From NCBI GenBank assembly GCA_965178125.1, contig OZ237735.1, forward strand, positions 496,001 through 560,000: a DNA stretch of 64,000 nt, written 5' to 3'. Position numbers and translations under genes: made by a program. Numbering within the stretch: position 1 is the first letter of the stretch; every line of letters starts with the position of its first letter. Under the pieces are notes generated by a model. The model was not told the DNA's origin and did not search any database. It saw only the letters and a program-made list of their open reading frames with translations. Below, piece after piece: positions 26,640 through 63,964 of this stretch. The DNA is from Bilabrum cf. latius (Eukaryota).

Positions 26640-29256
26640 ATGGCTGGTTCTGGAGATTTTCGTCTACCCAGGTTGGAAAATCCTGTTATTGGTGTCATTG
26701 GTGGGAGCGGCTTGCTGAAATCTCGATCAGAGCTCTTCTAGAAGCTCACTTTTGACGAAGTACCCACCTCGCAAGGCACAGTCTTAGTTCGCCACGGCAA
26801 GTTGGAGGGTGGAGGTACGCTCGTCTTCGTGCAGCGCCATGAAGCTACACCGTCCCGAAAGTACACCCAGCCCGCGGACATCAACTACGCCGCGATTGCG
26901 TTGGCCCTGAAAGCAGTTGGGTGCAGTCGCGTTATCGGCGTGTGCAGCGTTGGATCTTTGCGAACCTCGATCGGTGTCGGGTCCATAGTTGTGCCTGATG
27001 ACTACTATTGTCCGTACGACGTTCGCCGGGTGTACTCCGACTACCGTGGACACTACATGCCTGGCTTTGACGAGACATCGCGGGGATGCATCGTCGATGC
27101 GCTGCACGAGCTTCGCATGCGCCCAGTCGTGAGGTTTAGAACAGAATATAGTCGCACAAACTGCAACCTTTAAGTATCGCGTGGCGCACATTTCCACTCT
27201 ATTGGTGCATCCCATCGTCGTTCGCGCGCAGTCTGCTGGAACCTACGTGAACGCGAAGGGCCCTCGGTTCGAGACCAAGGCGGAGATCCGCACCTTTGCG
27301 CAGAGCGGAGAGATCCTCGGAATGACAGGGGCCCACGAGGCCTCGTGCTGCCAAGAAACCAAGCTGCAGTACGCGATGGTCTGCCTGGTGGACAACTTCT
27401 GCCACGGGATTGGGCACCAGCTCTCCGTGGAGGAGTTCCACACCAACCAGAAGAAGAACTTGGACACTCTTGAGGCCATGGTGGACGGCATCATCAGGGG
27501 ATCGGCCCAGAGTGCGAGAGCCGAGGCTGTGGACCCCACGCAGGCCGGCGTGGGGAGCGCGTCATCCGGAGCCGGCACGCACGCAAAGATGAAGCTGCCT
27601 GCCGCTGCCATGGGCGGGAAGAGCAAGGAGGAAGAGGAGGGTCGCAGCAGCTCCTCTGACGTCGTTGGTGCCGGGGGACTGGTGCGGTCGGGCACGCCGC
27701 AGGAGGTCGCGCAGGCCAAGGAGCAGGCCAAGGCTGCCACGGAGGCAGCAGCGTCGGGTGCAAGGGAGGAGGTCGACCTGGTGGTGCACGCGGGGTACGT
27801 GGTGCCCATCGTGCCGCGCGGCGCCGTGCTGCGGAACCACGCAGTGGCGGTGCGTGGGGGCCGCATCATCGCCGTTGTTCCCTCGACAGAGGCATCGACC
27901 CGTTTCTCAGCCGCGCAGGTGCGGCGGCTGCCCGGCCACGTGGTGATGCCCGGACTGGTCAACTGCCACACCCACCTTGGCATGTCTGTAATGAGGGGCC
28001 TCAAGGGCGACCTTGATCTCATGACCTGGCTGCAGACGGCCATCTGGCCCGCCGAGGCCCGCATGATGAGCACGCCTGAGAAGGCAGCCAAGTACGTCAG
28101 GGCGGGCACGAGGCTGGGCGTCCTCGAGAGCATCAGGGGCGGCGTGACGTGCGTTAACGACATGTACTTCTTCCCTGAGCAGACGGCAGAGGTCATCGTC
28201 GAGTCGGGCGTGCGCGGTACCGTGGGCGTCCCCGTTCTGGAGTTCCCTTCCACGTTCGCGAGCGGCGCTGACGACTACATCGCCAAGACGGAGGCCTTCA
28301 TCCTAAAGTGGAGAGACGTCAGCAACGACAAGCACCAGGGCAGGCTTAGGTTCGCCATCGCGCCCCACGCTCCTTACACTGTCTCTGACGAGTCATTCAA
28401 GAAGTCTCACGCCCTTGCAGTCAAGTACGGAGTGCCCATGCACGTGCACGTGCACGAGACCGCAGACGAGGTGGACCACTCCTCCACAGGCAAGCCCGGG
28501 CCCGCCAAGCACCAGAGCCAGCAGCTGCTGCGCCCCCTCGCTAACTTTAAGAGGATGGGCGTGCTGGATCGGCACCTGATCGCGGTGCACGTCGCGAATG
28601 CGAGCAAGGACGACATCAGGGATCTTCAGGAGGGGGGCGCCTCCGTTGTCCACTGCCCCAACTCCAACCTGCAGCTCGTGTCGGGGCTGTGCCCCGTGGC
28701 GCGCATGATGGAGGCCGGCGTGAACGTGGCGCTGGGCACCGACTCGACCGCTTCCAACGACAGCCTGGACATGTTCGGCGAGCTCAAGCTGGCTGCCGCG
28801 CTCGGCAAGATGGTCCGAGGGGACTCGAGGAGCCTCCCTGTCGCTGCCGCGCTGGAGATGGCCACCATCAACGGTGCCAAGGCCATCGGGCTAGGGGACG
28901 AGATCGGCTCTTTGGAGCCTGGCAAGAGCGCCGATTTTATCGCTGTCCGCACGGACGTCCCCGAGATGCAGCCCATTTTCAGCGTGGAGAGGCAGCTGGT
29001 GTACTCTGCAAGCAGGTCGCTCGTGACCGACTCGTGGGCTTGCGGTCGTGCCCTCCTGGTTGAGGGCGAGGTGCAGACCATGGACGTCGATTCGATCATG
29101 GCAGATGCTGTTGACTACGGGGTCCAGCTGGCTGCTGGCATGGAGCAGGACGATGCCAAGGCTGCCGCGTCCAAGGCGATGGATGGAGAGGAGGACGAGG
29201 GAGGGCCTGCAAGCGAGGAGGATGGCCCAGCGGCTACTAGTGGTTCTGGCTCGTGA
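26640..29256 (+). CDS. Fusion of an MTAP/PNP-family nucleoside phosphorylase and an MTA/SAH deaminase-like amidohydrolase; intron 27129-27231; TAG at 26739
   Basis: N-domain IGVIGGSG, FVQRH, PADINYAA, SVGSL, PDDY, GPRFETKAE, GMT, LVDNFCHG. C-domain PGLVNCHTH, DMYF, IAPHAPYTV, HVHVHET, AVH, HCPNSN, LGTD. No stop between the domains. Confidence 0.88.
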
Positions 29257-35168: not shown

Positions 35169-36132
35169 TCACAGCCTTCCATCCGAAGCAGAACCACCAC
35201 CACCACCACCTCTGCTCTCGCCGCTTCCGCCTTCAGAGCCACTTCCTGCCCCATCCACTCGTCTCGCATAGCCATCAACCTCACCCTTGATCAGAGCGAT
35301 ATCCTCCTGGGACAGCTCAAACACACCATCTTCGATCGCGCGACGGATAGCTGCAGTCGTCTCATCCTCCGGCTCAGCCGCGGCCTAGGCTTCGTCCGAA
35401 CCAGCGGCATTCCCTTGCCCTGGTTCGCCTCTGTGCACCCTTTGAGTCGCACCATCACTATCGGCTGCACTGGATGCGACGTGATTCTCGCCTGCTTGGG
35501 TTGTTGCCGCGTCGCTCGCCACCATTGGGGGAGACCCGACTGCTGGTGGTTGCTCGCCCGAGTTGCTGCCCACAACCCCTGAGGCTGTTTGCAAGCCAGA
35601 AAGCTGGCCATACGATATTCTTCGAAAGCTCTCTCCTTTCTCTTTGAGGATTTGCTCAACATCGATTGGGTCGTCCTCAAAGTATCCTAGTCGGTCTGCA
35701 AACAGGTGTAGATTGTTGCAACCCGGACAACGCACTAGGACCACGCCATGGTAATAAGCTTGCTGCGAACACAAGTTTGAGTAAAATCTTTAAATAATTG
35801 GCGTGAACATGCTTTGAAAGGTAGCTTATGTGGTTGCACTATCTCACTTTCGAAATCTGCTTGGCACTTCGTGTGTTGCAGACAGTGCACGTGAAAATAG
35901 TCACCATTTTCTCCCCACCATAGTGAGCTCCAGGAATGCGTGCTTTTGATGTTTGTGCCTCTGGGCCTTCTTGGCCTTCCCGTGGACCACAGCACGCAAC
36001 TGGGCTGATTGAGACGTGTCGATGTTGATGTTCCAAAACCGGTGCACTGAAAATTGCAGAAGACGCGGACTCCATGGCAAGCCGATGCCCATTTGAACAC
36101 AAGCAACCCAACCGTCGGAGACCCCTCTTCAT
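35169..36132 (-). CDS. DNLZ: Mitochondrial DNL-type zinc-finger protein (Hep1/Zim17/Tim15); intron 35763-35847; TAG at 35385
   Basis: FTCTVCNTRSAKQISK|QAYYHGVVLVRCPGCNNLHLFADRLGYF. C-terminal GVFELSQEDI is reached only by reading through the TAG. Ends TGA 35169. Confidence 0.88.
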
Positions 36133-36256
36133 GCTCCCAAATAGCCAGGGAAGCGCTGTAATGTTCCCGGAACAGCTGCAAGGTTCTCTGCCGCGCCGAA
36201 CGAACTTTCGGTCTGTGCACCAAGTGCAACCAGGACAACACGACACAAAATCCACC

Positions 36257-39200
36257 ATGGCTTCGATCGAAAGTCTTTCCAGAGCACTTCGAGAGGATAG
36301 TAGTGATGATGAAGAAGCTGACTATGAGTTAGGCCATCGGGAAGCAACTGGACGAGAATGGATGAGCCAAGAGAGGCTCCCAGTGCGAGGCATTGACGGA
36401 CGGGTTAGAACAGCGGACCAACTTGCTGCATCAAAGGATAGGGCGTCCGCTCTCACATCAGGGAAAGAAATTCGACCGTTCTCTGGTATGACTGCTGCAT
36501 CTGCAGATTCTTCTAGCCAATCAGAAGTCGATTCTGATGATGAAGACTCTGAGGCTGCACAGCCTCGGCGCTTGCGCGAGGATATCAAGGATGCAGTTTC
36601 CTCTGGCAGAACGGCAGGGCAGTCTGAGCCATCCACTTAGTTCAGTTGGCACCGTTTAGCAGCATCCGATCGCGCTCGCTTGAGACACCAAGCGAAGCTC
36701 AGAATCGCGGGCCTTTGCGAGGCCCTTGTGGCAGATCCCGAAACGTCCGTCTTGGCGCCCAAACCGCCAGCTCCAGACGCAAGCGGGGACATCAAACGCA
36801 AACGCAAGAAGCGAAAGAGTCCCATCGTGCAGCTGCAAGCCTTCTGCGCCACAGATGACCCGGTCGTTCGGTCGCTCGCGCTGGCCTCGACCCTTGCAGT
36901 GATGCAGGACATCCTCCCGGGGTACCGGATCAGGCCGCCCACGCAGGCAGATCTAGAGGAGCAAAAACTGTCCAAGGACGTCCGAAGCGCATGGAAGTTT
37001 GAGCGCGCCCTCTTGGACGCGTACGAAAGCTACCTGTCGGCGCTGGGTGCCTGCATCGAGCTGCACCCTTCGGGCAAGGGCAAGCTGAGGAGAGATGCGG
37101 CGCTGAGCTTCAAAGGGGCCAAGCGACCGTCCTACAGATTGAGCTACGGTCCGAAGGCGCAACGCACCGTTGCGCTGACCGCCACGAAATGCCTGTGTGA
37201 ATTGCTCCAGTCGCACTAGCACTTCAATCACTCAGAGCTTGTGGTGAAGGCAGCAGTCGGGCTTGGAGACTGCGGGGAGCCCGAACTGGAGTCCCTGGCC
37301 CACGCAGCGATCAGGGAGATGTTTTCTATGGATCCCACCGGCTATGCATCCTCAGAGGCGGCGGAGGCCATCAGCAAGCGAGTCAAGAAGCGTGGGCCAC
37401 GCGTGAGTCTCGGTTTGCTTGATACGCTGGGCAAGCTGCGCATCCGCCGGCTGATTGCGGATGACAAAGCAGCCCGCCGCAAGAAAGACTAGCAAGAGGA
37501 CGGCGCGGGGTAGCGCCGCCCAGACAATGACGAGGTGGAAATCGCGCTTAAGGCCATGGATGCGGACGAGCGGCAGCTCCGAAAGCAGGCGAACGAGAAG
37601 GCGCTCAAAGCGGCCGTCACCGCCCTCTTCCGCCTGCTCAAGCACCCCAAGGGGACCAGCGTGCTTGGCCCAGTCCTGAACGCCCTTGGTCGATTCGTTC
37701 ACCTAATCGATGTCGAGGTGGCGGGCGATGTGCTGGCTGCTCTGCAGGACCTAACCGACAGAGCCACGCTTCCAGCAGTGGAGAGGGCCATCGCGGAGGG
37801 CGGCTTGTCAACAGGTGAAGACGGTGCTGGCGGTGAAACCGAAGGCATCCAAGCAGAAATCGATGCCGAGAGCAAGAAGGTCGCTGCTTTCGCCGCCGGG
37901 TCTTCGTCTGACTTGCAGGACGATCGAAGCGGCGCTGTGCTCAACGCAGATGAGCTGGCAGTGGTGCAGGACGGCGCAGGCGAGGCGAAAGCCAGGGTTC
38001 GCCGAGGGTCCAAGAAGCAGAGGGTTGGGAGGAGGCAGCACGTTTTGCTGAACGAGCAGCCCCTGGGACGCCTGCCTGTCCCGATCACGGTGGATCCAAC
38101 TGTCGCGATGGAGCTCGTGAGTGCTGCTGCGTGGATCATCGCAGGGCCTGGTTCGAGCCTCGGCATCGACAGCTCAACATTCAGCACCTTCCTGTATCGG
38201 TCCATGATGGCTGTTCCTAGCGGTGGCAAGAAAGCAGTGGGTAGCGCCTGCCGAGCCATCGCGCTGCAGCTGCTCAAGCGGCGTGAGCCAGACCCACAGG
38301 TATCTGCATCCTTCGCCAAGCGATGTCTTGTGATCTCCATGCAGGTGGATACGCGAAGCCAGGCTGCTCTCATCCAGCTGTTCCGACAGCTGGTTGGGTC
38401 ATACACAGAGTTGGAGCAGGTTCTGGATCGAGTTCAAGACAGGGTGCAGGGCGGGACGTACCAGATCGACGGCATGTCGCTGGAGAAATGCGCAGGGCTT
38501 GCAGCGCCAACGTTCGAGCTGGCCGATCTTGCTGTGCGATCTTGGCACCCAGCCATCCGGAAATACGCGATAGAGGCTCTGTCTAGGGCCGTGGTCTCGC
38601 CGGCTCATGCCCCGGTCGAGGTGATCAAGAGCGCCTCTCTGCAGATCCCCGACGGAGAGTGCGGGTTCGCTGGCATTCCGCCGGCAGCTTCCAAGGACGT
38701 GAGATTCGCCGATGTGGTGACGTCAGTGTCTGCCAGCGAGGTACCGAGCTGCACTCTGGCTTCTCGCTCTGAAGATGACTTGGCGCTGTACGAAGTTGAT
38801 GTGCCGGGGCTGAGCGCTGTTGGCAAGGACACCCTCGATGCAATCGACCGCTTGGCAGCTGGCAGCCCGTCTGCTTTCTTCTCCGGGTCTCCAGCTTATG
38901 CAGCAGCAGCAGCATGCACTGATCAAGCGTATTGGATTTCGCAAGAGGACGAGGATGCTCTGCTTGATGTGCTTGAGCCTATCGTTGCAACAGGAGCTTC
39001 TGTGCAGCAAACTGGTGCAGCGCTTTCGACGGTTGGTTCTGGTGCAAGCTCGGAGGATGCATCAGGCGCAGCCAATGGTAGTCAGAGACCTCAACTTGGT
39101 AAGCGAAAGAGAGGGTCACAAGCGAACTCGAGCTCCCCGGGTGGAACGGTTTACTCCGGCGCTAGTTCGGCAGGCACAGGCAATTCAGAAGGTGGCAAGG

Positions 39201-39550
39201 ATCGGGCAGCTACTGCGAGGGCGGGCAAAGCTCGCCGGGAAAAGGCGAGGAAGAGGAGGCGCAAGGAGGGAATCAAATAGTCTGCTGGCCCTCCCGCGAC
39301 TGTAGATGTCTACAAGTCCAAGCTGGCTGAGAAGTATGGCAAGCAGAAGCACAAGTGGGCTGGCTCTGTCGGCAAGCTGGGGAACACCAAGTCGTCGATT
39401 ATGGCCCCCGGGGTTGGTGCCATTGCGCGTTCCGCGCTGACGTCGGACGCCGGGAAACCCAGGCGGCGCAAGGCCTCCAAGGCAGAGAGGCTGCAGCAGA
39501 GGATCGCAGTGATGAAGGCAGGGCGCGATGCCATGCGGTATGGTACCTGA
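36257..39550 (+). CDS. NOC3L: Nucleolar complex protein 3; TAG at 36638, 37217, 37490, 39278
   Basis: ERLPVRGIDG, KLRIAGLCEALVADPE, VMQDILPGYRIRP, KLSKDVR..FERALL..Y, LCELL..HFN, LGRFVHLIDVE, ASFAKR, WHP. Ends TGA 39548-39550. Confidence 0.85.
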
Positions 39551-39597
39551 ACACGAGACGCAGTTCCATTGAGAGCTTCTTCACTGTTTCGCATCAC

Positions 39598-42500
39598 TCA
39601 TTTCGCAAGCCCTTTCAACGTCTTCTAGGCAGCAGTGTACTGCCCCTTGACCCTGAGCACTTTGGCCTTCGACGCCTCGAATACCTTCTCCGCCTCTGCC
39701 AGCTCGGCCTTCAGCGCCTCGCTAGCCTCGACCAACTTGGCAGCAGTCTCTTGCAGCTTACCGTCACCGGGGGCGCGCTTCGCACGGAAGTTGGCCATCT
39801 GAGCGTCCTTGCTGCGAGCCTCAGAGTCAGCCTTCAGCCTTTGCAGCGCCTCCTTCTGCTTCTTAAAAGCGCCCGCTAGCTACGTCAGCTCAGCCTTGAG
39901 CTCCTCCACAATGACTTTCACCGGCTTGGCTGGCTGATCGGCCGCGACAGGAGAGGCACTCGCACCGCCGGCGGCTCCACCGCGCGCTGCTGCCGCGCCG
40001 TCATCAGCAGCAGCTACTGCCGCAGATACGGCAGCGCTGTCCTCCTTGGCCTTGGCGACCTTCTCATCTCTCTCCATCATCTTCTTGCGCATCTCAATCA
40101 CCTTTCTCCGCTCCCTCATGCGCCTCTCCTCCTCAGCAGCCTTCCTAAACTCGCTGTCGTCGGTACGCAAGGCCTCAAGCAAGCGGTCCTTGTACCCTTC
40201 CAGGTCTTCGGGAAGCTTCCGCACGCCTCGGTTGCCGGGAACCTCCCACAGCTCGCATTTGCAGAGCTCAATGAGCCTAACGTCGTGCGTGACGAGAACA
40301 ACGCCGCCGCCGTAGGTGTTGATGGCGTCTGCGAGAGCGTCGATCGACTCCATGTCCAGGTGGTTGGTTGGCTCGTCGAAGAAAATCACGTGCATACCCA
40401 TGAAGCTGAGGTCGGCAAACACCACTCGGGCCTTCTATCCACCCGACAGGTCCCTGAACGGGATCTTGTGCGCGTGGCTCTCCAGTCCGAATCGCCCCAG
40501 CCGAGCACGAGCCTCACGCTCGGGCTTGTTGTACCTCTGTCCGAGCCACTCCGCCGGGGACATATCCACCTATCTCATGTCGACGAAATTGTCAACAAAG
40601 TGCTGCGAGTACCGACCGATGCGAAGGAACCGATTGTGGATCACCTCGCCCTCCAGCGGATCGATCTCCTTCATCATCAGGCGCAGCAAGGTCGTCTTGC
40701 CAACGCCATTGGGACCCACGATTGTAGCACGCGTGGTTTGATCGATGCCGATGTTGACGTTGTGGAACAACATGTCCTCATCGGTTGGAGGTGTCGTAGT
40801 TCCGTCCAGATGCCTCTTGGGGTACCCAAAGCAGACGTCACGCATCTCAATAACCTGGGAAGACAGGTCCTCACACTCGCCAAAGTCGAAGCGAACCATA
40901 TACTCTTGCGGTCTCTCCATCAGCGTCGGGCCCGCGGCACTGGTGGCTATGCTGGTGGTTGGTCCGTCATCTCCTCCGGCCTTGTCGCTTTTGCGCACTC
41001 GGCTGGCAACGGCTGCCTCAGCCTCTGCCCGCGACTTGCCAGACCGCAGCATCTGGCTGAGCTGCTTCTGCTGCTGATCGAACATGGTCTTCATCTTATC
41101 CAGATTTTGCCTGTACATGATCTTGAACTTCTCGAAGCCGCCTTCGTAGTACTTGAGCTTCTTGTGGTCCAGGTGGATGATGTGCGTCACTACGCTGTCG
41201 AGGAAGTCCTGGTCGTGAGAAACAACCAGCAGGGTATTGCGCCAGCCCTGCAAGTAGTCGTTAAGCCACAGAACAGCATTCAGATCCAAGTGGTTCGTGG
41301 GCTCATCCAGCATCAGCAGAGTTGGTTGCACGAAGAGAGCTCGCGCTAGGGAAATACGCATGCGCCACCCACCCGAGAAATGCTTAGTCGGTTGGTCTTG
41401 CATCGTGCGAGTGAAACCTAGTCCGTTGAGAATCTTTCTGGCCTCAGCTTCGGCGCTCTGTACCCTGGACCCCTGAATCTCGTCGTCAATCTCTTGTTGC
41501 TTCTCCAGCACGAACGTCTGCGTGGCATCCGCCGACATCACCTTGCTCTTACCCTTCTTGGTGCCACCGCCGCGGAGGAGAGGGTCCTCCAAAACGGGCA
41601 ACTGCGACCGAGCTGCGTTTGCCATGGGGCTGTCCTTGCCGTACTACTTGATGATCGATTCAATGGCCCTAGTTGCGCCGAGGAACGCTGCAGAGCCATC
41701 GCCCTCGGACTCAAGGGCGCCCTGCAGCATCGGTCCCATTGCCAGCAGCTCAAGCCGGCGCTGATCAGCAGAAAGCACTGCCTCGATAGCTGGTGTCATG
41801 TCCGCCTTCACCTCCTGCTCGACATAGAGCATGTCGATGGATTTCGGGATGCTCAGCCGACCTCGCGCCATGAGCTTCAGCAGTGTGGATTTGCCCTGCC
41901 CGTTTGGACCAACCACCCCGTACCTGTTCCCATGCGTAAGATGCAGTTCCGCGTCGTCAAACAACCTCTTGGAGCCCACTGAAACACTAAACTTCTCGAT
42001 CCTGACGTCTCTAGAGTGTTCAAGGAACGCCTCATCGACACCTACCTGATCACACACGAAGTTAGCTAGTTCGTCCAGCTTGCTAGCATTTCTTGCAGCA
42101 CGTTGCTTCGAATTGCCGAGCAGCTTGTCCCTAAACTTGGAATACTCCTTGCGTTCCTTATTCGACAGCTTTTTGCCGGCCTTGGCATTGCGCACCGCGC
42201 TGAGCAGCACGGGGTTATCCTCTTGCGCCGCAAGCTCCTCTTCGTCCATCTCTTCTTCAAAGTCCTCCGATGTTAAGTGGATCGCAGCGGACGCAGCTGC
42301 CGCCTCCCGTTCGCGCTCTGCAGCCTCATCATCAACATCACCACCGGCACCAGACATAGCCGGACGACTGGGCTCACCAGCTGAAATATCATCCTCATCA
42401 TCGTCTTCAGGTGCCGCCCGAGAAGCGGACCCATCCTCCTCATCGTCGCTGTCCACGGCTCCACGCTTGCCCTTGCCCTTCTTCCCCTTGCCCTTCTTCC

Positions 42501-44877
42501 CCTTCCCCTTGCCCTTCCCGCGCTTGCCAGCCCCCGCATCCTCATCCTCCTCATCATCATCACTGTCCAGCGTCAAGGCCCCGCCCTTTCGACGGCCAGA
42601 CAGCATGCTCACGTCGTCACTGTCTTCATCATCGTCGCTGTCCACGGCTCCACGCTTGCCCTTGCCCTTCTTCCCCTTCCCCTTGCCCTTCTTCCCCTTC
42701 CCCTTGCCCTTCCCGCGCTTGCCAGCCCCCGCATCCTCATCCTCCTCATCATCCTCTTCGGGTGCCGCCCGAGAAGCGGACCCATCCTCATCATCGTCGC
42801 TGTCCACGGCTCCACGCTTGCCCTTGCCGCGCTTCCCCTTGCCCTTCTTCCCCTTCCCCTTGCCCTTCCCGCGCTTGCCAGCCCCCGCACCCTCATCCTC
42901 CTCATCATCCTCTTCGGGTGCCGCCCGAGAAGCGGACCCATCCTCATCATCGTCGCTGTCCACGGCTCCACGCTTGCCCTTGCCGCGCTTCCCCTTGCCC
43001 TTCTTCCCCTTCCCCTTGCCCTTGCCCTTCCCGCGCTTGCCAGCCCCCGCATCCTCATCCTCCTCATCATCGTCACTGTCCAGCGTCAAGGCCCCGCCCT
43101 TTCGACGGCCAGACAGCATGCTCACGTCGTCACTGTCTTCATCATCGTCGCTGTCCACGGCTCCACGCTTGCCCTTCCCGCGCTTGCCCTTGCCCTTCTT
43201 CCCCTTCCCCTTGCCCTTCCCGCGCTTGCCAGCCCCCGCATCCTCATCCTCCTCATCATCGTCACTGTCCAGCGTCAAGGCCCCGCCCTTTCGACGGCCA
43301 GACAGCATGCTCACGTCGTCACTGTCTTCATCATCGTCGCTGTCCACGGCTCCACGCTTGCCCTTGCCCTTCTTCCCCTTGCCCTTCTTCCCCTTCCCCT
43401 TGCCCTTCCCGCGCTTGCCAGCCCCCGCATCCTCATCCTCCTCCTCATCATCGTCACTGTCCAGCGTCAAGGCCCCGCCCTTTCGACGGCCAGACAGCAT
43501 GCTCACGTCGTCACTATCTTCATCATCGTCGCTGTCCACGGCTCCACGCTTGCCCTTGCCCTTCTTCCCCTTGCCCTTCTTCCCCTTCCCCTTGCCCTTC
43601 CCGCGCTTGCCAGCCCCCGCATCCTCATCCTCCTCATCATCGTCACTGTCCAGCGTCAAGGCCCCGCCCTTTCGACGGCCAGACAGCATGCTCACGTCGT
43701 CACTGTCTTCATCATCGTCGCTGTCCACGGCTCCACGCTTGCCCTTGCCCTTCTTCCCCTTCCCCTTGCCCTTCTTCCCCTTCCCCTTGCCCTTCCCGCG
43801 CTTGCCAGCCCCCGCATCCTCATCCTCCTCATCATCCTCTTCGGGTGCCGCCCGAGAAGCGGACCCATCCTCATCATCGTCGCTGTCCACGGCTCCACGC
43901 TTGCCCTTGCCGCGCTTCCCCTTGCCCTTCTTCCCCTTCCCCTTGCCCTTCCCGCGCTTGCCAGCCCCCGCACCCTCATCCTCCTCATCATCCTCTTCGG
44001 GTGCCGCCCGAGAAGCGGACCCATCCTCATCATCGTCGCTGTCCACGGCTCCACGCTTGCCCTTGCCGCGCTTCCCCTTGCCCTTCTTCCCCTTCCCCTT
44101 GCCCTTGCCCTTCCCGCGCTTGCCAGCCCCCGCATCCTCATCCTCCTCATCATCGTCACTGTCCAGCGTCAAGGCCCCGCCCTTTCGACGGCCAGACAGC
44201 ATGCTCACGTCGTCACTGTCTTCATCATCGTCGCTGTCCACGGCTCCACGCTTGCCCTTCCCGCGCTTGCCCTTGCCCTTCTTCCCCTTCCCCTTGCCCT
44301 TCCCGCGCTTGCCAGCCCCCGCATCCTCATCCTCCTCATCATCATCACTGTCCAGCGTCAAGGCCCCGCCCTTTCGACGGCCAGACAGCATGCTCACGTC
44401 GTCACTGTCTTCATCATCGTCGCTGTCCACGGCTCCACGCTTGCCCTTGCCCTTCTTCCCCTTCCCCTTGCCCTTCTTCCCCTTCCCCTTGCCCTTCCCG
44501 CGCTTGCCATCCCCCGCATCCTCATCCTCCTCATCATCGTCACTGTCCAGCGTCAAGGCCCCGCCCTTTCGACGGCCAGACAGCATGCTCACGTCGTCAC
44601 TGTCTTCATCATCGTCGCTGTCCACGGCTCCACGCTTGCCCTTCCCGCGCTTGCCCTTGCCCTTCTTCCCCTTCCCCTTCCCCTTGGCCGCGCCTTTACC
44701 TTTCATGTCATGCCCAGGAACTGACTTTAGGTCATCGCTATCGCTGCCATTCTCTGCTGTCGAAGGGCCTGCGACATCTACTGAATCGAGAGCAGCTTGA
44801 CGTGCAGCACGTCCTGCCGGCAAGCCGTCATCGCTGTCATCACCCCTTCGCTTTCCTTTGCTCTTTCTCTTCGGCAT
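39598..44877 (-). CDS. ABC-F family ATPase (ABCF1-like) with a repeat-expanded K/G/D-rich N-terminus; TAG at 41644, 40570, 40435, 39880, ~39625
   Basis: Two nucleotide-binding domains: GPNGQGKSTLL, FSGGWRMRISLARALF..LDEPTNHLD and GPNGVGKTTLL, LSGG*KARVVFA..FDEPTNHLD. No TM domain. Ends TGA 39598. Confidence 0.92.
42410..44690. repeat. Coding tandem repeat array (two unit types, ~140-190 bp) with a ~1,083-bp higher-order duplication
   Basis: Near-identical units encode GKRGKGKGKGKKGKG..RGAVDSDDDEDSDDVSMLSGRRKGGALTLDSDDDEEDEDAGA or ..GSASRAAPEEDD. Identical alternative-frame ORFs at 42609-43076 and 43692-44159 are offset by 1,083 bp. Confidence 0.95.
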
Positions 44878-48499: not shown

Positions 48500-51400
48500 A
48501 TGCAGCCACTGTATGCAGGAAACGGAATCGTTGCGATTCGTAGAGAAGACAAGAACAAGTGGGAAAGAAGGGTGAGAAATTAAAGGTTTAAGCACGCGCC
48601 GAGCCGACTGTTGGTTATATTCACCATTCTGTCCCTGCGGTGGGCCCACTCGAATGTATAATTGTTATTGACCCTGTGATCAATAACAAAGAACAAATCT
48701 ATCGTAGCGTAGTTGCTGCGATACCCAATTGGCTGCGATGAATGTGCTCGAATTTTCAAGATCGCTCCGCCTCCAATCGTTTTGGTGTGGTACGCAGGCA
48801 CCGCTGGCTCCCGAGCATGTCGCTGCGCTGGTGTAGCGAGGCGTCCGTGTTGTTGTTCAAAAGAGTGGTAGGCGATGCTACCCTGATGGGGCGTACGCCG
48901 CTGCTGGCGCAGAAGTAAGACTTGCGACTGTTCCTACAAGGAGTTGTTGATCACTTGCAGCTCTACCGTTATGAGTTTCCCTCTGGAGTTTATGTTGGCG
49001 TATTTATCGCAGGTTCAAGAAGATATTTCAGCGGCTTCGACGGTCCTCTGCGTGAAGGAGCCTCCGATCGATCTTGTAAGGAACGCATCTGCCACATCAG
49101 CTGCCCCTGCCATCGCAATTCTGCCTCAGGGCACTCGCTGTCCGATCAATTGAAAGTACACGCATCTTTCGCAGCTCTTGTCACACCCCGGTCGCACGTG
49201 GGTGTGCTTTAGCCACACCATCAAGGCCCAGCGGAGCAACATGCCGCTCCTCGACGCGTTCCTAGCCTCTCGCCAGCGCCTGATCGACTACGAGTGCATC
49301 ACCGAGACGGGCGAGCGCAGGGGCAAGCGCCTCGTTGCTTTCGGGCGGTTCGCAGGCCTGGCCGGCGCGGTGGATTTCAACCGCGGGCTGGGTGAGCGCC
49401 TCCTGGCCCTTGGGCACTCCACCCCCTTCCTATCCACTGGCTCGTCCTACATGTACCGGAGCGCGGCAGAGGCCAAGGAGGCCGTGAAGCGGTGCGGGGA
49501 ACAGTTGGCGGATGAGGGCCTCCCTGCAGAGCTGTGTCCCTTCGTGGCGGCTTTCACAGGGGGCGGCAACGTGGCCAAAGGTGCCAAGGAGGTGTGGTTC
49601 AACCTTCCGCACGAGGTTGTCACCCCCGAGGAGCTGCCCGCTCTCATGGCGTCCTGCAAGGAGGCTGATAAGAAGCACGACGATGCAGTGGAGGCGTGGA
49701 GCCTCGCAACTGCGGACGGAAAGGCTCCTGGTCCTTCCCCCCCGGTACCAGAGCACAGGCGCAAGGTCTACATGGTCGACATTGGGAGGGAGGCCATGGT
49801 GGAGCGGAGGGGGCAAGGGGGGACGGGGGCAGTGGAAGGTGCTTCCGCTGCTTCTTCCAAGGCGAAGATCGACCGCGCGCACTACTCAGCGCACCCCGAC
49901 GAATATGATCCGATCTTCGCCCGGGACGTGCTCCCCTTCGTGAGTGCCGTGTTCATCTGCCACTACTGGGAGCCCAAGTACCCCCGTCTGTTCACCGCCG
50001 AGGACTGCGGAGAGCTGTGGCGGGCTGGACAGCTTCGGCTGGTTGGCGTGTGCGACGTGACGTGCGACTACATGGGCGCGTGCGACATGCTGACCACGTT
50101 CACCTCCATCGAGGAGCCCTTCTTTTGCGCGGACGTGGGTGCGGTTGGTGCGGCAAAGAAGCAGGCTACCGGTGGCAGCGGGGCCTCGGGAGCGGGTGAC
50201 GACGCTGTGTCGCTGGCGTCCGCTGGGGCGGGCATCGAGGTCGAGTACCAGGGCGAGGGAGAGGGCTGGCCCGTGGCCATGGGCGTGGACGCCGGGGCAA
50301 AAGCAGCCAAGGGTCTGGGCAAGGGTCCAGCAAGCCGCTGGGTGCTGTACCACGCTGTGGACCACCTGCCTTCGGAGCTGCCGAGGGACTCCACGGGTCA
50401 CTTCGGCTCAGCCCTCGTCTCGATGGTCGAGGGACTGGCCTGGGACGACCAGAACGAGTCCAAGAGCCTATTCGACAAGCCCGGCAAGGCCCAGCCGATG
50501 ACCTCCACGGAGCTTCCAGCCGTGCAGGAGGTGGCCAAGGCTCCCGTGTCTGCCCGCAAGGCTCCCGACGGCGTCTCTGCCTTGTCGAGGCTGTTAGTCG
50601 GTGCCACCATCACGTGTGCGGGCCAGCTGACGCCGGCCTACCGGTACATTGCAGCCATGCGCAACGCAGATGAGCGCGCAGCGCGCAGCATGGCCAAGTC
50701 TGGCTCAGACCAGGCGCTCTCCAGGATGGCTCAGGGCGGCTCCGACGGAGGCAAGCTCCAGGCGCAGGGCGACACGAGCAGCGTTGGAGCGGGCGTAGAC
50801 AGCCTGCAGGAAGGCAAGGGCATGCGGCCGGTGGAGGCCGTGCGCAGCTCCAGCATCGGGGACCAGCTGCTGGCGGCCGCTGGTTCCCAGCCGAGAGCAA
50901 GCCCTCTGGCAAAGCCCCCTGCAATGCGAGTCCCAGCCTCTGGGCAGCGGCGGATGGCTCGCGCACCCAGCTACACGACGATGTCCGTGCGCGGTCACTT
51001 GTTCGACAACAACGTGATCAACAAGGTGCTGGATGTGGTGGAGAAGAACAACGGCGCGGCCAACATCCTGCGGATGGAGGTGGGCAGGGACGGCGAGGAG
51101 GAGTCCATCGCCGCACTGCAGGTGTTCGTTCAGGACGGCAACAAGGCCGGGGCCCTTACCAAGATGGTGGAGCAGGTGCACTCGACGGCCAAGGAACTCG
51201 GGGCCGTCGTGGCTCCCATGGCAGTGGGGGATGCAGCAAAGGAATCTGCCGGTGCTGCCAACCGCTTGGCCAAGTTCCAACGAGGCGGCCCGGGCGATGG
51301 GGCCACCGCTGGGTGGGGCTGGGGCCTGGGAGCCGATGCCAGCGGCGCCACGCACCTCGTACCCATCCGTGCAGATGGGGCGTCTGCCGTCGATGGCAGC

Positions 51401-53290
51401 CGGGCCGTCTCCACGCCTACAAGCCTCGGCATTGCAGTAGATGAAAGGCCCGGGGGCCGAGCGGCGGGAGGGGCCATGGCCGCCGCGGCGCAAGGGCTGC
51501 CGGCAGACGTGCTCTCCTCGATGTCCCCGATGATCCCAAAGGCGATGCCTCGGGAGGCGTGGTCCAGGCGGGTCCTGCTGCTGGGCAGTGGCCTAGTGAC
51601 TGCTCCCCTTCTAGACATCATGCTGCAGGACCCAAGGAACGCCATTGTGGTTGGCAGCTTTGACGCCGTGCAGGCTGCAGAGCTGGTCGCCCGGGTAGCT
51701 GGGGGCCGACTCGGCCTGCCTGTCGCGCCTGACGGTGGCTCTGCGGATGCCTTCGCTGAGCACGGAAGGTCCGACGGCGACCAGCTTGTGGGGGGTGGCA
51801 GCGCTGCTTTCTCTCACCTTTCGAAGGACCCGATCGCGGGCAGGCGCTGCGCTGCCACGTTCATCGACGTGAACAACCAGCCCAACCGGCTGATGCAGCT
51901 CGTGAGCGGTGCCGATGTTGTCCTTTCGCTGGTGTCTGCTCCATTCCACCCGCCCGTCGCGAAGGCGTGCGTAGAGTCTGGAGTGAACATGGTGACCGCC
52001 AGCTACACCAGCCCTGCCATGAAGGAGATAGAGTCAGACGCGAAGGCGAAGGGCGTGCTGCTGCTGAACGAGTGCGGCCTCGACCCCGGGATAGATCATG
52101 CCACGGCCGCCCGGTGCGTTGACAAGGTGCGGGCGCAGGGTGGCACTGTTACGGAGTTCTCCAGCGTCTGCGGCGGACTGCCAGCTCCCGAGGCAGCCAC
52201 CAACCCGCTGGGGTACAAGTTCAGCTGGGCACCTCGGGGCGTGCTGACCGCATGCAAGAACGACTCCGCCTGGCTGGAGGGTGGTGAGGTCCGCAAGGAG
52301 CCAGGGAGCCGGTTGCTGCAGACGGCCAAGGACATGTACGTCAACCCTGCGTTCAGCCTGGAGGTGCTGCCCAATAGGGACAGCATCGCGTTCATGCAGA
52401 CGTACGGGTTTGCCCCGCCTGACGGGGCTGCGGCTGGTGGAGCTGCGGGTGCAGAGGCTCTGGCAGGGGGTGCGAAGCGCTTCTTCCGCGGAACCCTGCG
52501 CTACAAGGGATACTGCGCGCAAGCAGAGGCATGGCGTCGGCTTGGGTGGCTGTGGGAGACGGATGCCAACGGACCGGACAGGTGCATCGGACAGGACGGC
52601 TCGGGCAAGCCAACCATTGCGGCACCGTTTGCAGAAGCCAGTCTGCAGACTGACGGCGGCATCTCGCTGCGGCGATGGCTTGCCGCGTCTCTGGGGCTTG
52701 GCGGCGACAGATCGGCCGAGGCGCTGGATGCTGTGACGGACAAGGAGATGCAGGACGCGCTGGCTGCAGTCTGCGCGAAGGAGCCCGCCATCGAGCCCTC
52801 GGCTTCGCTTCGCAACATGCAGTGGCTGGGATTCTTCGGGCCCCGCGTGCTGCGGCCGCCGGCGTCTGGCCGGTTGAACGGTGGCGTGGTCGCTGAGGCA
52901 CCTCCGCTGGATGTGCTCTCGCACCTGCTGCAAACCGAGCCAGCGATGGGCTACGCTGTCAGTGAGGCCACCGGCAAGCAAGAGAGGGACATGGCCCTGA
53001 TGCGCCACGTGGTTCGCGCCGAGTACCCCGCAGCGGGCGGCAAGCCCGCTCGCAAGGTGAGGATCGACAGCACACTGATCGAGTACGGCAGCGACACGGC
53101 GGGCGGAGATTCAGCCATGGCTCGGACGGTCGGCTACTGCAGCGCCGTCGCGGCTCAGCTCGTGCTCGACGGCAAGCTCTCTGAAGTGACAGGTTGTGCC
53201 ACGCCTGTGCAGCAGGCCGTCTACGAGCCCCTGCTGGCTGGGCTCGAGAGGCTTGGCATCCGCATGGAGGAAGAGGAGCATGAAGAGTGA
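48500..53290 (+). CDS. AASS: Bifunctional lysine-ketoglutarate reductase/saccharopine dehydrogenase; introns 48572-48797, 48915-49012, 49076-49174; TAG at 48834
   Basis: IRREDKNKWERR|APLAPEHV, VKEPP, FSHTIKAQRSNMPLLD, RLIDYE, RLVAFGRFAG, VDHLPSELP, LLGSGLV, NECGLDPGIDH, CGGLPAPE..NPLGYKFSW, RGTLRY, SAMARTVG. Confidence 0.93.
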
Positions 53291-53586: not shown

Positions 53587-55716
53587 TTACACAAGAAACG
53601 TAAAGCAGCCTGTCGGGCTCGTGCAAGACATCTTCACCATGGCATAGAACTGGAACTCGGGGAGGAGCACCTCTAGGACGCCCGGCTTGCTGGAACTGTC
53701 TCGCACAGTCACGTTCACCTGGCCGACGTGGTCAAAGGCGGACACAGAGCTGGACGAGATGCCTGGCTTTGCAACCAGCTCAACGATGGCGTTAGTCACG
53801 TTCGGAGGCCGCCGTGGTGCCCTCTCTCGCTTGCCGCACCAAGCGAAGGCATTGGTCACCGCGAGCACTGGGCTGGCGTTGGCTTGGCCGGGCACTGCGA
53901 AGACGTTCATGTGGGCGTCGATGGATTGAGGGGGAACTGGCACCCCACTCACACCCCCTTCTGAGTCGGTTGCTGCCTGCATTGCCGAGTTGTACTTGAG
54001 CGCGGCTGGCGGTGCCCCGACCGCATCGGTGATCATTGCCCGCAGCTTCGCAGCCGCCCCCGGTCGCTTGGTAGCGTCCAGCCAGTCTCCCGTAGGAATG
54101 TCCGTCATGTTGACGACCTTGCCACCCGCGGCAACGTAGCTGGCCAGGGCGCTCTGCTGGTCAGCGGTGGGACGCGCCTGCTGAGGCACGACGAGGACTC
54201 TGGTCATGCCCCGCTGCAGCACGGCCTGTGGGTCAGGGGTGACGCCAGGCCCTGTCGCATTGAAATTGGGCACGGCGCCGATCTGCCAGAGGTGCGCCAC
54301 CCTCCGCGGTACGTTCCAGCGAGTGAGCGCGTGCCACGCGCCCATGGTGGCCCCCATGAGCTCCGTCCAGACCTGCTGGTCTGGCGTCGCAGGCTTGTTC
54401 ACAAGAGGCACGAGCTCGTCGCGACGCCACTCATCCATCGCGACGCTCGCCCAGCCCACCGGCTCAAGCCCATCGAGGATTCCCGCGAGCCGATTGCCCA
54501 CTTTGTACGTCTCTGCGAACAGAGTCGCGTTGGGAATCCCGCCCTCGGAGTGGTCCGGGTTCGCCACGAGACCGTACGACACCATGGCGCCTGCGCCGCA
54601 CTGCACGAAGTCAGACCCCTCCGAAGAAGCAGGGTCCCACGTGTGCGGGGGCCTACCGTACGACGCATCTCTGGACGTTGCCCAGCCCCACGAGATGAAA
54701 ATGTCCGCGTCGAAGGAGGCGTTGGCGAGGTTGCCCGCGAACCCGCGCAGGCAGGGAACACCCCTGCCCGTGTCGTACTCTATCTTTGGGACCTGCAGCA
54801 CCCCATCCTGGGCCTCCATACCCTGCCACTCGAAGAGCTCCCCGCCGCTGTCCGCGCAGGGCAGCTGGTGGGTGGAGAGGAACGGAATGGCAGGCGCTGT
54901 GCGGTTGCCTGCGGCGACGCCCATCTCGCTGGCGTTCGCGATGGTCCGAGCGATGTCCCCGTAGAACTTTGTGACCGTGTACGTGTTGTATTGCAGCACT
55001 TTCTTGTACTGCGCGGGGTCCTTGGTGGGATCCTTGGGCATGGGTTCCCCCCCCGACCATTCCTAGTACTTGGCTCGGCACGCGTCGCAGAAGCAGCCCT
55101 GTGGAGGGATGGGATACTCATCTACGTAGACGCCGTCAACGCCGGCATGATACACGAGATCATGCAGCTGGGACAGGTACGTCTCCCTCCACCCGGTGTT
55201 GATGCAAAGTCCCAAGCCGCGGCTGAAGCGTACCGGGCTGCCTTGCACGTCTCGAGAGAGCCAAGTCGGTTCATGGGCCGAGTAGTACGCGTGACAGCGA
55301 GGATAGTGGTACGCGATGAAGTGTGCTCCTGCATCATGGGCTTTCTTAGCTATCTCGACGGGGAGCTGCCGGCCAGTGTTGCGCACAATCGGAAGCAAGC
55401 CCTCCTCTGGAATCGGGGCGGATGGATACCTCATCCAGTCCCCATCTGACCCTTCGTGGGTGTGCCGCACAAACGCATGCACTCCAATTTCAGCAAAGAG
55501 CTTGGCTGCGTCATCAAAGACCGGCTTGCAAGCAGTGCTGTTGCAAAATGACTGCGCTGCGAGTCGTGTGTGCGCGTGGAACCTTGTGCTGGAATACCAC
55601 TCTGGAACTGCGTGTGAATCGCTCGTACAGCCAATGGTGGATTGTATACCCAATGCTACAATTGCTACCGCAGTACTGGTAGGTATCATGGTCGTTGCAG
55701 CTTCTGTATCGCGCAT
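53587..55716 (-). CDS. Secreted glycoside-hydrolase-like protein (GHL6/GH42-like TIM barrel); TAG at 55063; ends TAA; alternative start 55689
   Basis: Hydrophobic leader TAVAIVALGIQSTIG; AHDAGAHFIAYH, HEPTW, LCINTGWRETY, GVDGVYVDE, GCFCDACRAKY*EW. The two supplied ORFs join in frame over one TAG. Confidence 0.6.
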
Positions 55717-55831
55717 TTGAGTCTTTCGAAAGATCGCAATCGTCACGAGTTGTCGCGAGCGGAGCTCAGCCCTTTGTAGCGACAAGGCCAAAATATTTGC
55801 GACTCCTTGTTGAAATATTGACAATCGTGAT

Positions 55832-58000
55832 ATGTCTGCCGCCTGGAAGTCACTAGCATTTGGATCACACCGCTCTCCAGTCATCGCGGGAGATGCCATG
55901 ATCTGTTGCACGCAACCCCTTGCGGCAGAAGCAGGCGCCAGGATACTTCGCGCGGGCGGGAATGCTGCAGATGCATGTGTTGCGATTGCAGCTTGCATGA
56001 ACGTGTGCGAGCCGACATCTACAGGGATAGGCGGCGACTGCTTTGCGCTCTACTACGATCCGAATGTAGACCCGTCAAAGGTGCACGCCATGAACGCCAG
56101 CGGGCGGTCGGCGGCCGCCCTTTCGCGAGACTTGGCAATTGCAGCATGCTTTCCATCTGGCGCCCCCGAAGGCGACGATCTGCTTGGGATGCCAAGCAAG
56201 CATGCCTGCTGCGTGACGGTGCCAGGCACTGCCGCAGGCTGGGACTCTACTCTATCGAAATGGGGTACCATGTCGCTGGCAACCGTGCTCGCACCCGCCA
56301 TTCAGCTGTGCGAGCGCGGTGTCCCAGTTCCCCCCATCACCGCGCGAATGTGGAAAGACGCCGAGGCCCACCTGCTCGCAGGCCCGCACCCTGCCGCCAT
56401 GCTGCTCGCCGACCACGCCTCCATGGTGGACCCCGTCTCTTCATCGAAGGGAGGCGCCGCGGGTACGGTTGAAAGTGCAAGAGACCGCCCTCGGCTGCGC
56501 GCCCCTCGCGCGGGGGAGATCCACAAGAAGCCCGGCCTGGCGAGGACCTTCAAGCTGGTTGCAGAGCGCGGCAGCAGGGACGGCTTCTACAGGGGAGAAG
56601 TCGCGGAGGCGATCGAAGCGGTTGTCAAGGGAGCGGGCGGGTGCCTGACCGCCGCAGATCTGGCAGAGCACGAGACTGAGTTCTGCGAGCCGCTCTCAGT
56701 CACCTACACGCCGGTCCTGCCATCCGACGAGGCAGCCAAGCGGATCTTCGGGGCCCCAGGGACCAGCGGCGGCGTTGGTGCAGGGAGGGGGTTCCCGGCG
56801 CGGGAGGTTCGTGTGTTTGAGTGCCCACCCAACGGATAGGGCATCACCGCGCTGATGGCGCTACAGATCCAGGAGGCCGTGCTGCGGGGGGACCCTGGAG
56901 CGGCCGAGGACTTGGCCGGCCGGGCGCTGGACGAGTCGGGTGTTGGCTAGTCCCTGGAATCATCCGCTGAGGCCGTCGTGAAAGCGGCTGCAGAGGCAGA
57001 GGGGTTCACTGCCGCCGGCGAACCTTCGTCGTGGTTCGCTCCGCTGTCACCCGCCGCGATGCACGTGCAGATAGAGGCCATGAGGCTGGCTTTCGCGGAC
57101 ACTCGCTGGCTGGTCCGAGATCCTGACGAAGCCTTCGCCGCCGCTGGAGGCAAAGGGCCCGCAAAAAAGCCCACTGGCGAACGCAAGGCAGCATTGTTGG
57201 AGTGGGAGAGCATGCTTCGGCCCGAGTATGCGGCTGCCAGGGCAAGTAAGATCTAGAGGAAACCGTGTCGCGCCGCTGTAGACGTGCGCAGGGGCTCGCC
57301 CATGGGCTCGTGCGACACGGTGTCATTCAGCGTGGTAGACGGCGAGGGCCGGGCGTGCTCGTTCATCCAGTCGAACTACGCGGGGTTCGGGACGAATTTG
57401 ATTCCGGATGGCTGGGGGTTTACCCTGCAGAACCGCGGGGCCAACTTTACTCTGCGTGAGGGTGCGCCCAACTGCGTGGGTCCTAGGAAGCGGCCCTACC
57501 ACACGATCATCCCCGGCATGGCTCTGCATGGCGAAACCGATTCGGCCACCGCTGCCCTTGGTGCCTCGGCTGCAAGCGGCGCGGCATCAGGTTCCGGCTC
57601 GGTGACGGGTCGCGCGGACAGCCGGTTGCTGTACAACTTCAGCTGCATGGGGGGCTTCATGCAGCCCCAGGGACACCTGCAGCTGCTCACAAACCTCCTG
57701 GAGTTCGGCATGCACCCCCAGGAGGCCCTGGATGCTCCTCGGTTTTGCATTCCGGCGGGGCGGGCGACGGTGCCGGGGGCAGTCCCAGGCTCGGTACTGC
57801 CTCCGCCGGTTGCCATCGAGGAAGGAGTGCCAGCAGACACTGTGGCGGCCCTGGCTGCGGCTGGCCACCAGGTCGAGGTTGTGCGGTCTTGGGGCCGCTC
57901 CGTGTTTGGCAGGGGGCAGATTGTTTGGAGAGACCGGCAGACGGGTTCGTTGTGGGGCGGCACAGATCCTCGCGGGGACGGGATCGCGATTGGCATGTGA
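55832..58000 (+). CDS. Gamma-glutamyltransferase (YwrD/glutathione hydrolase-like); TAG at 56837, 56948, 57254
   Basis: QPLAAEAG..GGNAADA..EPTSTGIGGD, VTVPG, ECPPNG*G, DTVSFSVVDGEG..SFIQSNY, LQNRG, KRPYHTIIP, MGGFMQPQGH, ALDAPR, FGRGQ, GTDPRGDG. Confidence 0.93.
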
Positions 58001-62458: not shown

Positions 62459-63964
62459 ATGTCGAGACGATTGATGGGTTCCTTATCTCGACGAAATGTG
62501 AGTGGGGCACCCCAGAGGTCTTGGAATCGTGCGGCTCACGCTCGTGCTTTGCCGCTGCTGTGGAGACGGTAGCAGTCCCTTTGGAGAACACTACAGCGTA
62601 GACTTGCATCGAGCCCAGCCGCGACATAGAGTAGCGCTACGCGTGTTGCCGGCGGGGTCAGCCCGACCGCGTTGCGGCTGGTCGCAGCCTGGATCTTCTC
62701 CGTCGCTGCAATCGTGTATGTGATGGTCGTCGTAGGTGGCGTGACTAGATTAACCCGATCTGGCCTGTCCATGGTTGACTGGAGGCCGCAGGGCAGTTGG
62801 CTGCCTCAGACCGACGAGGCATGGCAGGCCGAGTTCGACAAGTACTAGCAGTTCCCGGAATACAGACTCAGAAACATGGGCATGACGCTCGAAGAATTCA
62901 AAGATATCTACTGGTGGGAATGGTTCCACAGGATGCTCGGGCGCGGTATCGGGCTAGCATTCGCGCTGCCAGGCGCGGCCCTCGCCCTCAGCGGGAGCAT
63001 ACCGCGGGCGCTGCGGGGTCGACTGGGCCTCGCCTTTGCGCTGGGTGGGACACAGGGACTCATTGGGTGGTGGATGGTGAAGAGTGGGCTCGACCACAAG
63101 AACTACGAGGGAGAGAACAAATTCAAGGATCCCCGCGTGTCGCCGTACCGTCTCGCAACGCACCTCACCATGGCGTTCAGCATCTTTGGGCTCCTGCTGT
63201 GGACTGGGTTTGACGCGCTTTCCATGGCTTCGGCAGCCGCTGCCGCTCGTGGGTCAGCCAAGGCCATCGCTGCGGCCCCGACTGCAGCGGCCACCCGAGC
63301 AGCCGCCCGGATGCTCCCCGCGCTCACTCTCGCCACTGGCCTCGTGGGGCTCACTTCTTTCGCGGGGGCCTTTGTGGCGGGCAACGACGCGGGCAGGGCC
63401 TACAACGACTGGCCCATGTACGCAGGCAGGCACGTGCCGGAGGAGATCTGGGACGACAAGCTGGGGTACAGGAACGTGTTTGAGAACACCGCGACGGTGC
63501 AGTTCGACCACCGAAATCTGGCCTACGCCACCGTGGCGGCTGTTGGTGTGACGATGGCCATGTGGCTCCGCAGTGGCGCCGCTCTTTTTCCCAAGTCGGC
63601 CAACGTCGCCCTTGCCCACCTCGGGCTGGGCGTGCTGGGCCAGGCAGGGCTGGGCATCGTGACCTTGATGTCGTACGTCCCGGTGGAGCTCGGTGCCGCG
63701 CACCAGGGAGGGGCTCTGGCTCTGCTTGCGGCGGCGCTCTGGTCTAGGCACGCGGTCGGGCGAGTGGCCGGCGGTGCGGGGGCTGTCCACAGAGCAGCAG
63801 CTGCCGGGGGGCCCGCGGGCGCGACTGCTGCTGCTGCTGCTGCTAGCTTGCTTGGTCTGAGGTGCCTGCCCGAGGGGTTTGGACGCGGGGGTTCTATGGC
63901 GGTCGAGCCGAGGGACTTGGGGACAGTGCGCGAGCTGGAGGACGACGTGCCGGGTTCGTAGTGA
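62459..63964 (+). CDS. COX15: Heme A synthase; TAG at 62570, 62627, 62846, 63959; true stop TGA 63962-63964
   Basis: VVVGGVTRLTRSGLSMVDW, EFDKY*QFPEY, EWFHRMLGR, QGLIGWWMVKSGL, VSPYRLATHL, GAFVAGNDAG, VQFDHR, AAHQ. Confidence 0.95.

Follow-up and report, generated by a model that had tools for sequence, protein, structure and literature searches.

An in-frame TAG in the ABC signature of an ABCF1-type gene and the probable reading of UAG as glutamine in a eukaryotic nuclear genome

An in-frame TAG in the middle of a conserved ATPase motif may be a chance stop, a mark of decay or a codon with a meaning of its own, and this is the question raised by an ABCF1-type ABC-F ATPase gene on the minus strand of a 64,000-nucleotide stretch of eukaryotic nuclear DNA (positions 496,001 to 560,000 of contig OZ237735.1, assembly GCA_965178125.1, deposited as Bilabrum cf. 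latius; approximately 59% GC; hereafter the window). From 40449 down to 40423 this strand reads CTG TCG GGT GGA TAG AAG GCC CGA GTG, which translates as LSGG*KARV. The original prediction, made from the letters of the window alone, had reported this motif and assigned its TAG to Gln; reading the reverse complement and translating it reproduces the motif, its coordinates, its strand and the position of the TAG (40435-40437) exactly. Comparisons at the sequence level make it very probable that UAG is a glutamine sense codon in the nuclear code of this organism, with UAA and UGA as stops, the signature TAG being one of 121 such codons in the window.

39598..44877, minus strand: ABCF1-type ABC-F ATPase gene, ATG at 44877..44875, TGA at 39600..39598, 1759 codons, five in-frame TAGs.
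40423..40449, minus strand: ABC signature motif LSGG-TAG-KARV of the second nucleotide-binding domain (NBD2), aligned to LSGGQKARV of human ABCF1 (5zxd).
40435..40437, minus strand: in-frame TAG at position 5 of the NBD2 signature, LSGG[Q], residue 1482 of the stop-to-stop open reading frame (ORF).

Under the standard code the region is split, while reading TAG as a residue yields a single open frame of 1760 codons (minus strand, 44880 to 39598), which ends in TGA, has its first ATG one codon past the upstream TGA and needs no intron anywhere in the gene. The alignment to human ABCF1 (PDB 5zxd, E 9e-157) runs through the signature TAG gap-free and in a single frame, and the codon is therefore not a chance stop; an intron or a frameshift at this site was rejected on the same grounds, as the alignment is collinear. 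The Walker B motif FFDEPTNHLD follows downstream with the frame unchanged. Walker A, signature and Walker B are all intact in both nucleotide-binding domains, in NBD2 only if the TAG is read as a residue. Aligning the protein to its ABCF1 orthologues, as the original prediction had proposed, places Q at the signature column in all 120 of the ABCF1-type homologues aligned (the best 120 of 7906 matches), and in the PDB alignments the TAG faces Q in ABCF1 and yeast Arb1 and E in Escherichia coli YheS. The claim that NBD2 of ABC-F proteins reads LSGGQ thus holds for the eukaryotic ABCF1-type matches and Arb1, but not for YheS. The further claim that this TAG stands for Gln rather than Leu, Glu or Tyr is supported at the site and across the gene, although the motif by itself leaves Glu functionally possible; what excludes Glu is a codon-level comparison with a relative, together with its control.

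For that comparison, in which the ABCF gene was set against one relative, a degenerate pattern from the Walker B region retrieved two metagenome contigs, L001 and L002. These are 73% identical to the gene in nucleotides and 82% in amino acids, and encode the same protein as a database match, P0002. The signature TAG is CAG in the relative, and the other four in-frame TAGs compare as follows:

41644..41646, minus strand: in-frame TAG, residue 1079, in a lineage-specific insertion of the first nucleotide-binding domain (NBD1); AAG (Lys) in the relative, column otherwise all gaps.
40570..40572, minus strand: in-frame TAG, residue 1437; CAG in the relative, variable column elsewhere (P 52, N 26, others).
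39880..39882, minus strand: in-frame TAG, residue 1667, in the C-terminal coiled region; CAG in the relative.
39625..39627, minus strand: in-frame TAG, residue 1752, eight codons ahead of the TGA; CAG in the relative.

In the opposite direction, CAA stands in the window at each of the three positions where the relative's gene has an in-frame TAG. TAG therefore faces a CAR codon (CAA or CAG) at seven of the eight sites, and no TAG position is common to the two genes, as synonymous turnover predicts when synonymous sites are saturated. As a control, all 965 aligned codons of the ABCF gene and the relative were tabulated by window codon class:

Window CAR (Gln): Gln in the relative at 28/35, TAG at a further 3/35.
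Window Lys: Gln in the relative at 3/81.
Window Glu: Gln in the relative at 1/82.
Window Leu: Gln in the relative at 0/87.
Window Tyr: Gln in the relative at 0/15.
Window Ser: Gln in the relative at 0/56.
Window Trp: Gln in the relative at 0/5.
Window TAG: Gln in the relative at 4/5, Lys at 1/5.

By this comparison TAG behaves as a Gln codon, unlike the other classes tabulated, and TAG and CAG/CAA interchange freely between the two species as synonymous codons would. The sister species, at 82% amino-acid identity in ABCF1, likewise shares the code.

The frame downstream of the signature TAG is conserved. Over the 278 codons that follow it, the proportions of synonymous and nonsynonymous differences (pS and pN, Nei-Gojobori) are 0.747 and 0.129, and over all 348 codons aligned to L001 they are 0.745 and 0.110. 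Purifying selection past the TAG is strong, and the downstream part is therefore translated. A product ending at the TAG and lacking DEPTNHLD, which would have spoken against the original prediction, is accordingly not what these comparisons indicate, as DEPTNHLD is present and under selection. The relative's gene stops at the same TGA position as the window gene. In the L002 translation the relative has a TAG at position 467, and protein P0002 begins at the first Met past it. With the 3126-residue kinase of the window as query, three shorter protein fragments from relatives (90-95% identity) were matched, and all three end one residue ahead of window TAGs (2001, 997 and 2406); we take them to be predictions made with TAG as a stop codon. 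L001 also carries a second ORF beside the ABCF gene (755-1606, minus strand), with 283 codons and five in-frame TAGs. NOC3 is not the neighbour of the ABCF gene in L001 (best local score 47), so that local gene order differs from that of the window and this part of L001 adds nothing to the comparison of TAG sites.

The pattern extends to the 14 genes of the window, which are long and mostly intron-free (Pfam): UTP20, two kinases, RRP45, an MTAP-amidohydrolase fusion, a Kv-type channel, NOC3, ABCF1, an MFS transporter, LKR/SDH, a GHL6-like protein, gamma-glutamyltranspeptidase (GGT), an uncharacterised protein and COX15. Over 18,198 codons, their ORFs hold 121 in-frame TAGs and no in-frame TAA or TGA, a count that is partly circular as the ORFs are delimited by TAA/TGA. 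All 121 TAGs lie past the first ATG and make up 16% of TAG, CAG and CAA taken together. The two other frames of the same 14 ORFs contain 43 and 62 TAA (105), 321 and 467 TGA (788), and 165 and 136 TAG. The total length of ORFs of at least 300 amino acids rises from 12,703 residues under the standard code to 28,510 with TAG as sense, and stands at 12,758 with TAA as sense. A code in which both UAG and UAA (UAR) are Gln (table 6) was rejected: were TAA also Gln, approximately 50 in-frame TAAs would be expected from the CAA:CAG ratio (181:440), none is observed, and two genes end in TAA.

TGA is the main terminator at the gene ends of the window, and UAA is also used (11 TGA and 2 TAA among 13). 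These ends bear on the strongest competitor of the glutamine reading, an ambiguous or context-dependent code in which UAG would be Gln inside genes and would also end some of them; Condylostoma, the karyorelict ciliates and UAA of Blastocrithidia are examples of such double use as stop and sense. The sample of 13 ends is small, and COX15 ends in GS-TAG-TGA, where the TAG could be the real end. None of the 13 ends needs TAG, however, and where the window has a TAG eight codons ahead of the ABCF stop, the relative has CAG, both genes reaching the same TGA. We consider such a code improbable.

As to the residue, a second conserved column agrees with the signature, and a third site does not:

56837..56839, plus strand: TAG in PPNG-TAG-G of the GGT gene, the second conserved anchor by its homologue column.
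62846..62848, plus strand: TAG in FDKY-TAG-QFPEY of COX15, residue 163, a counter-example in a mostly Lys column.

At the GGT anchor, 150 homologues have Q 126 times, H 13 times and S 4 times, with 2 gaps and G, A, L and T once each; two PDB relatives have Q. Neither in this column nor in the signature column does K, E or Y occur among the 120 and 150 homologues, and L occurs once, in GGT. Pyrrolysine or selenocysteine at TAG was rejected, given an invariant Gln column and codon exchanges with CAR.

Several observations weigh against the glutamine reading. The column of COX15 TAG163 is K 105, R 11, Q 3 and gap 1 of 120, and a 97% identical relative (P0122) has K; kinase TAG2399 also faces K in a 90% identical relative, as does ABCF TAG1079 (AAG). 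In the four PDB alignments shown, three of them with human constructs, RRP45 TAG132 faces D, a TAG in the Kv-type channel aligns to E of Kv1.3 in a variable loop, and the final COX15 codon (TAG then TGA at 63959-63964, plus strand) faces S in P0122, in an uncertain part of the alignment. To these can be added the E in the signature of YheS, and the failure of ARAGORN to find any tRNA gene, either in the window or in the relative's contigs L001 and L002. The TAGs facing K, E or D fit replacements to Q, the codon being one step from AAG and GAG, with some ambiguity remaining; as these codons are abundant in the window genes (AAG 654, GAG 706, as compared to CAG 440 and CAA 181), some TAGs should have arisen from K or E codons where the site tolerates change. 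There is a small probability that the TAGs not facing Gln reflect mixed or context-dependent decoding.

The same sites are what could be advanced for UAG as another residue (Lys, Glu, Tyr or Leu) or as a near-cognate mixture of Gln, Lys and Tyr: K faces TAG at three of them (COX15, kinase, ABCF), D and E at one each, and bacterial YheS has E in its signature. Readthrough of UAG in yeast inserts Gln, Tyr and Lys. Such a decoding nevertheless seems very improbable in view of the Q counts at the two best conserved columns (120/120 and 126/150) and of the codon-level matches, seven of eight to CAR, against a control in which K faces Q at 3/81, E at 1/82 and L, Y, S and W at none; the chance of four or more Q among the five TAGs of the ABCF gene would then be about 1e-5 or less.

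Least credible of all is that the TAGs come from a pseudogene, from assembly or sequencing error or from mRNA editing of UAG to CAG, since, even if no run carrying the stretch is recorded as RNA, the letters are identical in the contigs of four runs, 14 genes share 121 TAGs with no TAA or TGA in frame, selection downstream of the signature TAG is strong, the relative has in-frame TAGs at other Gln positions and, as a weak point, one set of contigs guessed to be RNA (run X6) still has TAG. The contigs of the four runs, from four coded studies (P1-P4) under four organism labels, were compared over 36000-42150. All four runs cover 40435-40437 with no differing letter, and one of them (X1), which has the whole compared stretch within a single 83-kb contig, may be the source of the window. 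Contigs of the runs carrying the stretch measure 83-212 kb. The original prediction would have been undone by CAG at these positions, and the contigs (contigs, not reads) of none of the four runs have it. In X6, which like the other runs carrying the stretch is not recorded as RNA, the contigs break off between NOC3 and the ABCF gene, at 39559 on one side and at 39578 on the other, and all five TAGs are present on the ABCF contig. The break and the TAGs together are a weak hint of an unedited transcript, and the break, if X6 is RNA, would mean very short 3' untranslated regions. The two genes are convergent, the TGA of NOC3 (39548-39550, plus strand) and that of ABCF (39598-39600, minus strand) lying 48 nucleotides apart.

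The glutamine reading and the nature of the gene go together, and we hold it highly probable, for the two jointly, that this is a functional, intron-free gene for a translation ATPase. The remaining features of the gene are:

41293..41958, minus strand: NBD1, best Pfam ABC_tran stretch, residues 975-1196; Walker A GPNGQGKST, signature FSGGW, Walker B LLMLDEPTNHLD.
40261..40764, minus strand: NBD2 (approximate limits), Pfam P-loop residues 1373-1537; GPNGVGKTT, LSGG[TAG], IFFDEPTNHLD, VTHD.
42626..44693, minus strand: N-terminal tandem repeat array of 156/189-nucleotide units, about 9.5 copies of the 189-nucleotide unit, no TAG within.

Pfam recognises ABC_tran in two stretches (E 4.8e-40) and no transmembrane family in the protein; the ABC_tran_Xtn linker scores 22.1 bits, under the curated cut-off of 25.9, and is collinear with human ABCF1 (query 197-642). 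Solved relatives rank as human ABCF1 (5zxd, 9e-157), yeast Arb1 (1.2e-83), E. coli YheS (3e-72) and eEF3/New1 (approximately 1e-56), and the named database matches carry the name ABCF1. At the level of best matches, the gene thus appears nearer to ABCF1 than to other ABC-F subfamilies. The repeat array spans approximately 2 kb, with 86-88% matches, and forms the N-terminal third of the protein as alternating KGKGKGKK and DSDDDEDSDD blocks, rich in Lys/Gly and in Asp/Glu respectively. It causes a strong GC and AT skew at 42-46 kb and makes short-read assemblies break near 42470.

Human ABCF1 (ABC50) and yeast Arb1 are soluble ABC-F ATPases with twin nucleotide-binding domains that work on the ribosome. 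The window protein resembles them in having two ABC_tran domains with a putative linker, in a sequence collinear with 5zxd, in its charged N-terminal extension and in the pairing of an xSGGW signature in NBD1 with LSGGQKARV in NBD2. It differs from them in its 1759 residues, its N-terminus enlarged by repeats, its NBD1 insertion and its long coiled C-terminal tail, as well as in the signature Gln being written TAG.

TAG use differs strongly from gene to gene in the window: there are 38 in the giant kinase and 24 in the channel gene, but none in the amidohydrolase (27133-29253, plus strand; CAA 2 of 27 CAR codons) or in LKR/SDH (49154-53287, plus strand; CAA 6 of 43). Gene-to-gene use may perhaps track expression level. 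Tandem in-frame TAG-TAG pairs occur in the kinase at 9716-19093 (minus strand; residues 1557-1558 and 2720-2721), in UTP20 at 2-7807 (minus strand; residues 883-884) and in the GHL6-like gene at 53590-56301 (minus strand; residues 83-84). In the fusion gene (approximately 26650-29256, plus strand), an N-terminus resembling methylthioadenosine phosphorylase (PNP_UDP_1) is joined to the amidohydrolase, and the reading frame of this PNP part shifts near 27050-27130. The shift points to a single short intron, the rest of the window being intron-free; one in-frame TAG lies in the exon upstream of it and none in the large exon.

Which organism carries this code is a matter on which single-gene trees offer some guidance. 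The best named matches of COX15 are Cafeteria roenbergensis (55%) and then Hondaea (52%), and in a FastTree analysis the window sequence falls in a clade of eight (SH-like 97) in which Cafeteria roenbergensis is the one named sequence. A long branch (0.9) unites the window sequence with P0002 in the ABCF tree, beside environmental sequences and one EukProt transcriptome entry, other best ABCF1 matches including Blastocystis, diatoms, Nannochloropsis and an oomycete. A high GC content and a scarcity of introns are also reminiscent of Cafeteria. These trees tentatively suggest a Cafeteria-like stramenopile. As COX15 is present, the organism is aerobic; this, along with composition, gene structure and stramenopile best named matches, argues that it is not one of the fornicate or ciliate carriers of such codes. 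Over 39500-42100, compared across runs X1-X8, runs under four coded organism labels in four studies share 0.76 to 1.00 of sampled words with the window, and others, including an algae and a protist metagenome, share 0.10-0.19. The organism may often accompany cultures, as an associate or as a contaminant.

As to mechanism, analogy with the reasoning of Panek et al. 2017 (PMC5304391) would have UAG decoded by a tRNA-Gln with anticodon CUA, the sole anticodon that would read UAG and not UAA, arising most simply from a duplicated tRNA-Gln(CUG). A glutaminyl-tRNA synthetase accepting the CUA anticodon and an eRF1 with weakened recognition of UAG would probably also be needed (PMC5304391). At gathering thresholds, Rfam gives no match in the window, and the eRF1 gene does not lie within it. 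The genome looks complete, GC-rich and gene-dense, and would be one from which the predicted tRNA-Gln(CUA) and eRF1 changes could be read off directly.

UAG alone as Gln, with UAA and UGA as stops, is the pattern of NCBI table 15. It is described from Iotanema spirale, where UAA is the primary terminator and an eRF1 change, T32G, is tied to lost affinity for UAG (PMC5304391), and is cited for Protocruzia tuzeti and two phyllopharyngean ciliate lineages (PMC11687900). UAR as Gln is, according to PMC5304391, found in many ciliates, hexamitin diplomonads, some ulvophytes and Amoeboaphelidium. Codes in which UAG and UAA are decoupled are listed in the two papers from Iotanema, a rhizarian (Leu), Scotinosphaera (Ser), Protocruzia and a few phyllopharyngean ciliates (PMC5304391, PMC11687900). 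The literature searched, with partial coverage, reports no such code for stramenopiles, labyrinthulomycetes, thraustochytrids, Bigyra, MAST or bicosoecids. The code type is thus known and the lineage appears new for it. That this is the first stramenopile nuclear stop-codon reassignment, with UAG as Gln and UAA and UGA as stops in at least two species of a GC-rich, intron-poor, Cafeteria-like lineage, strikes us as an evenly balanced proposition.

If true, UAG would have been decoupled from UAA once more, and independently, in an aerobic organism. Its DNA occurs in runs under at least four organism labels, so that it may be easily cultured for study of how eRF1 and tRNA-Gln(CUA) separate the two codons. 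Nuclear codes with different meanings for UAG and UAA are rare, and a further case would inform how such codes arise. There is also a practical side, as most long genes come out broken when this genome or its relatives are annotated with the standard code, and database proteins of relatives are visibly truncated at TAGs.

Set beside the known systems, the window resembles the UAG-only codes of Iotanema, Protocruzia and the phyllopharyngeans in that TAG is a sense codon that aligns to Gln, while TAA does not occur in frame and, like TGA, ends genes, so that UAG and UAA differ in meaning. Unlike Iotanema, its organism has COX15 and other genes for mitochondrial proteins, and so is no anaerobic fornicate; TGA is moreover its main terminator, whereas PMC5304391 gives UAA as primary in Iotanema. 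Nor does it look like a ciliate, with 59% GC, contigs of at least 83 kb, long intron-free genes and stramenopiles as best named matches. With the UAR codes (table 6) it has in common UAG as Gln, presumably through a tRNA-Gln(CUA), and from these it differs in that TAA is not a sense codon in the window.

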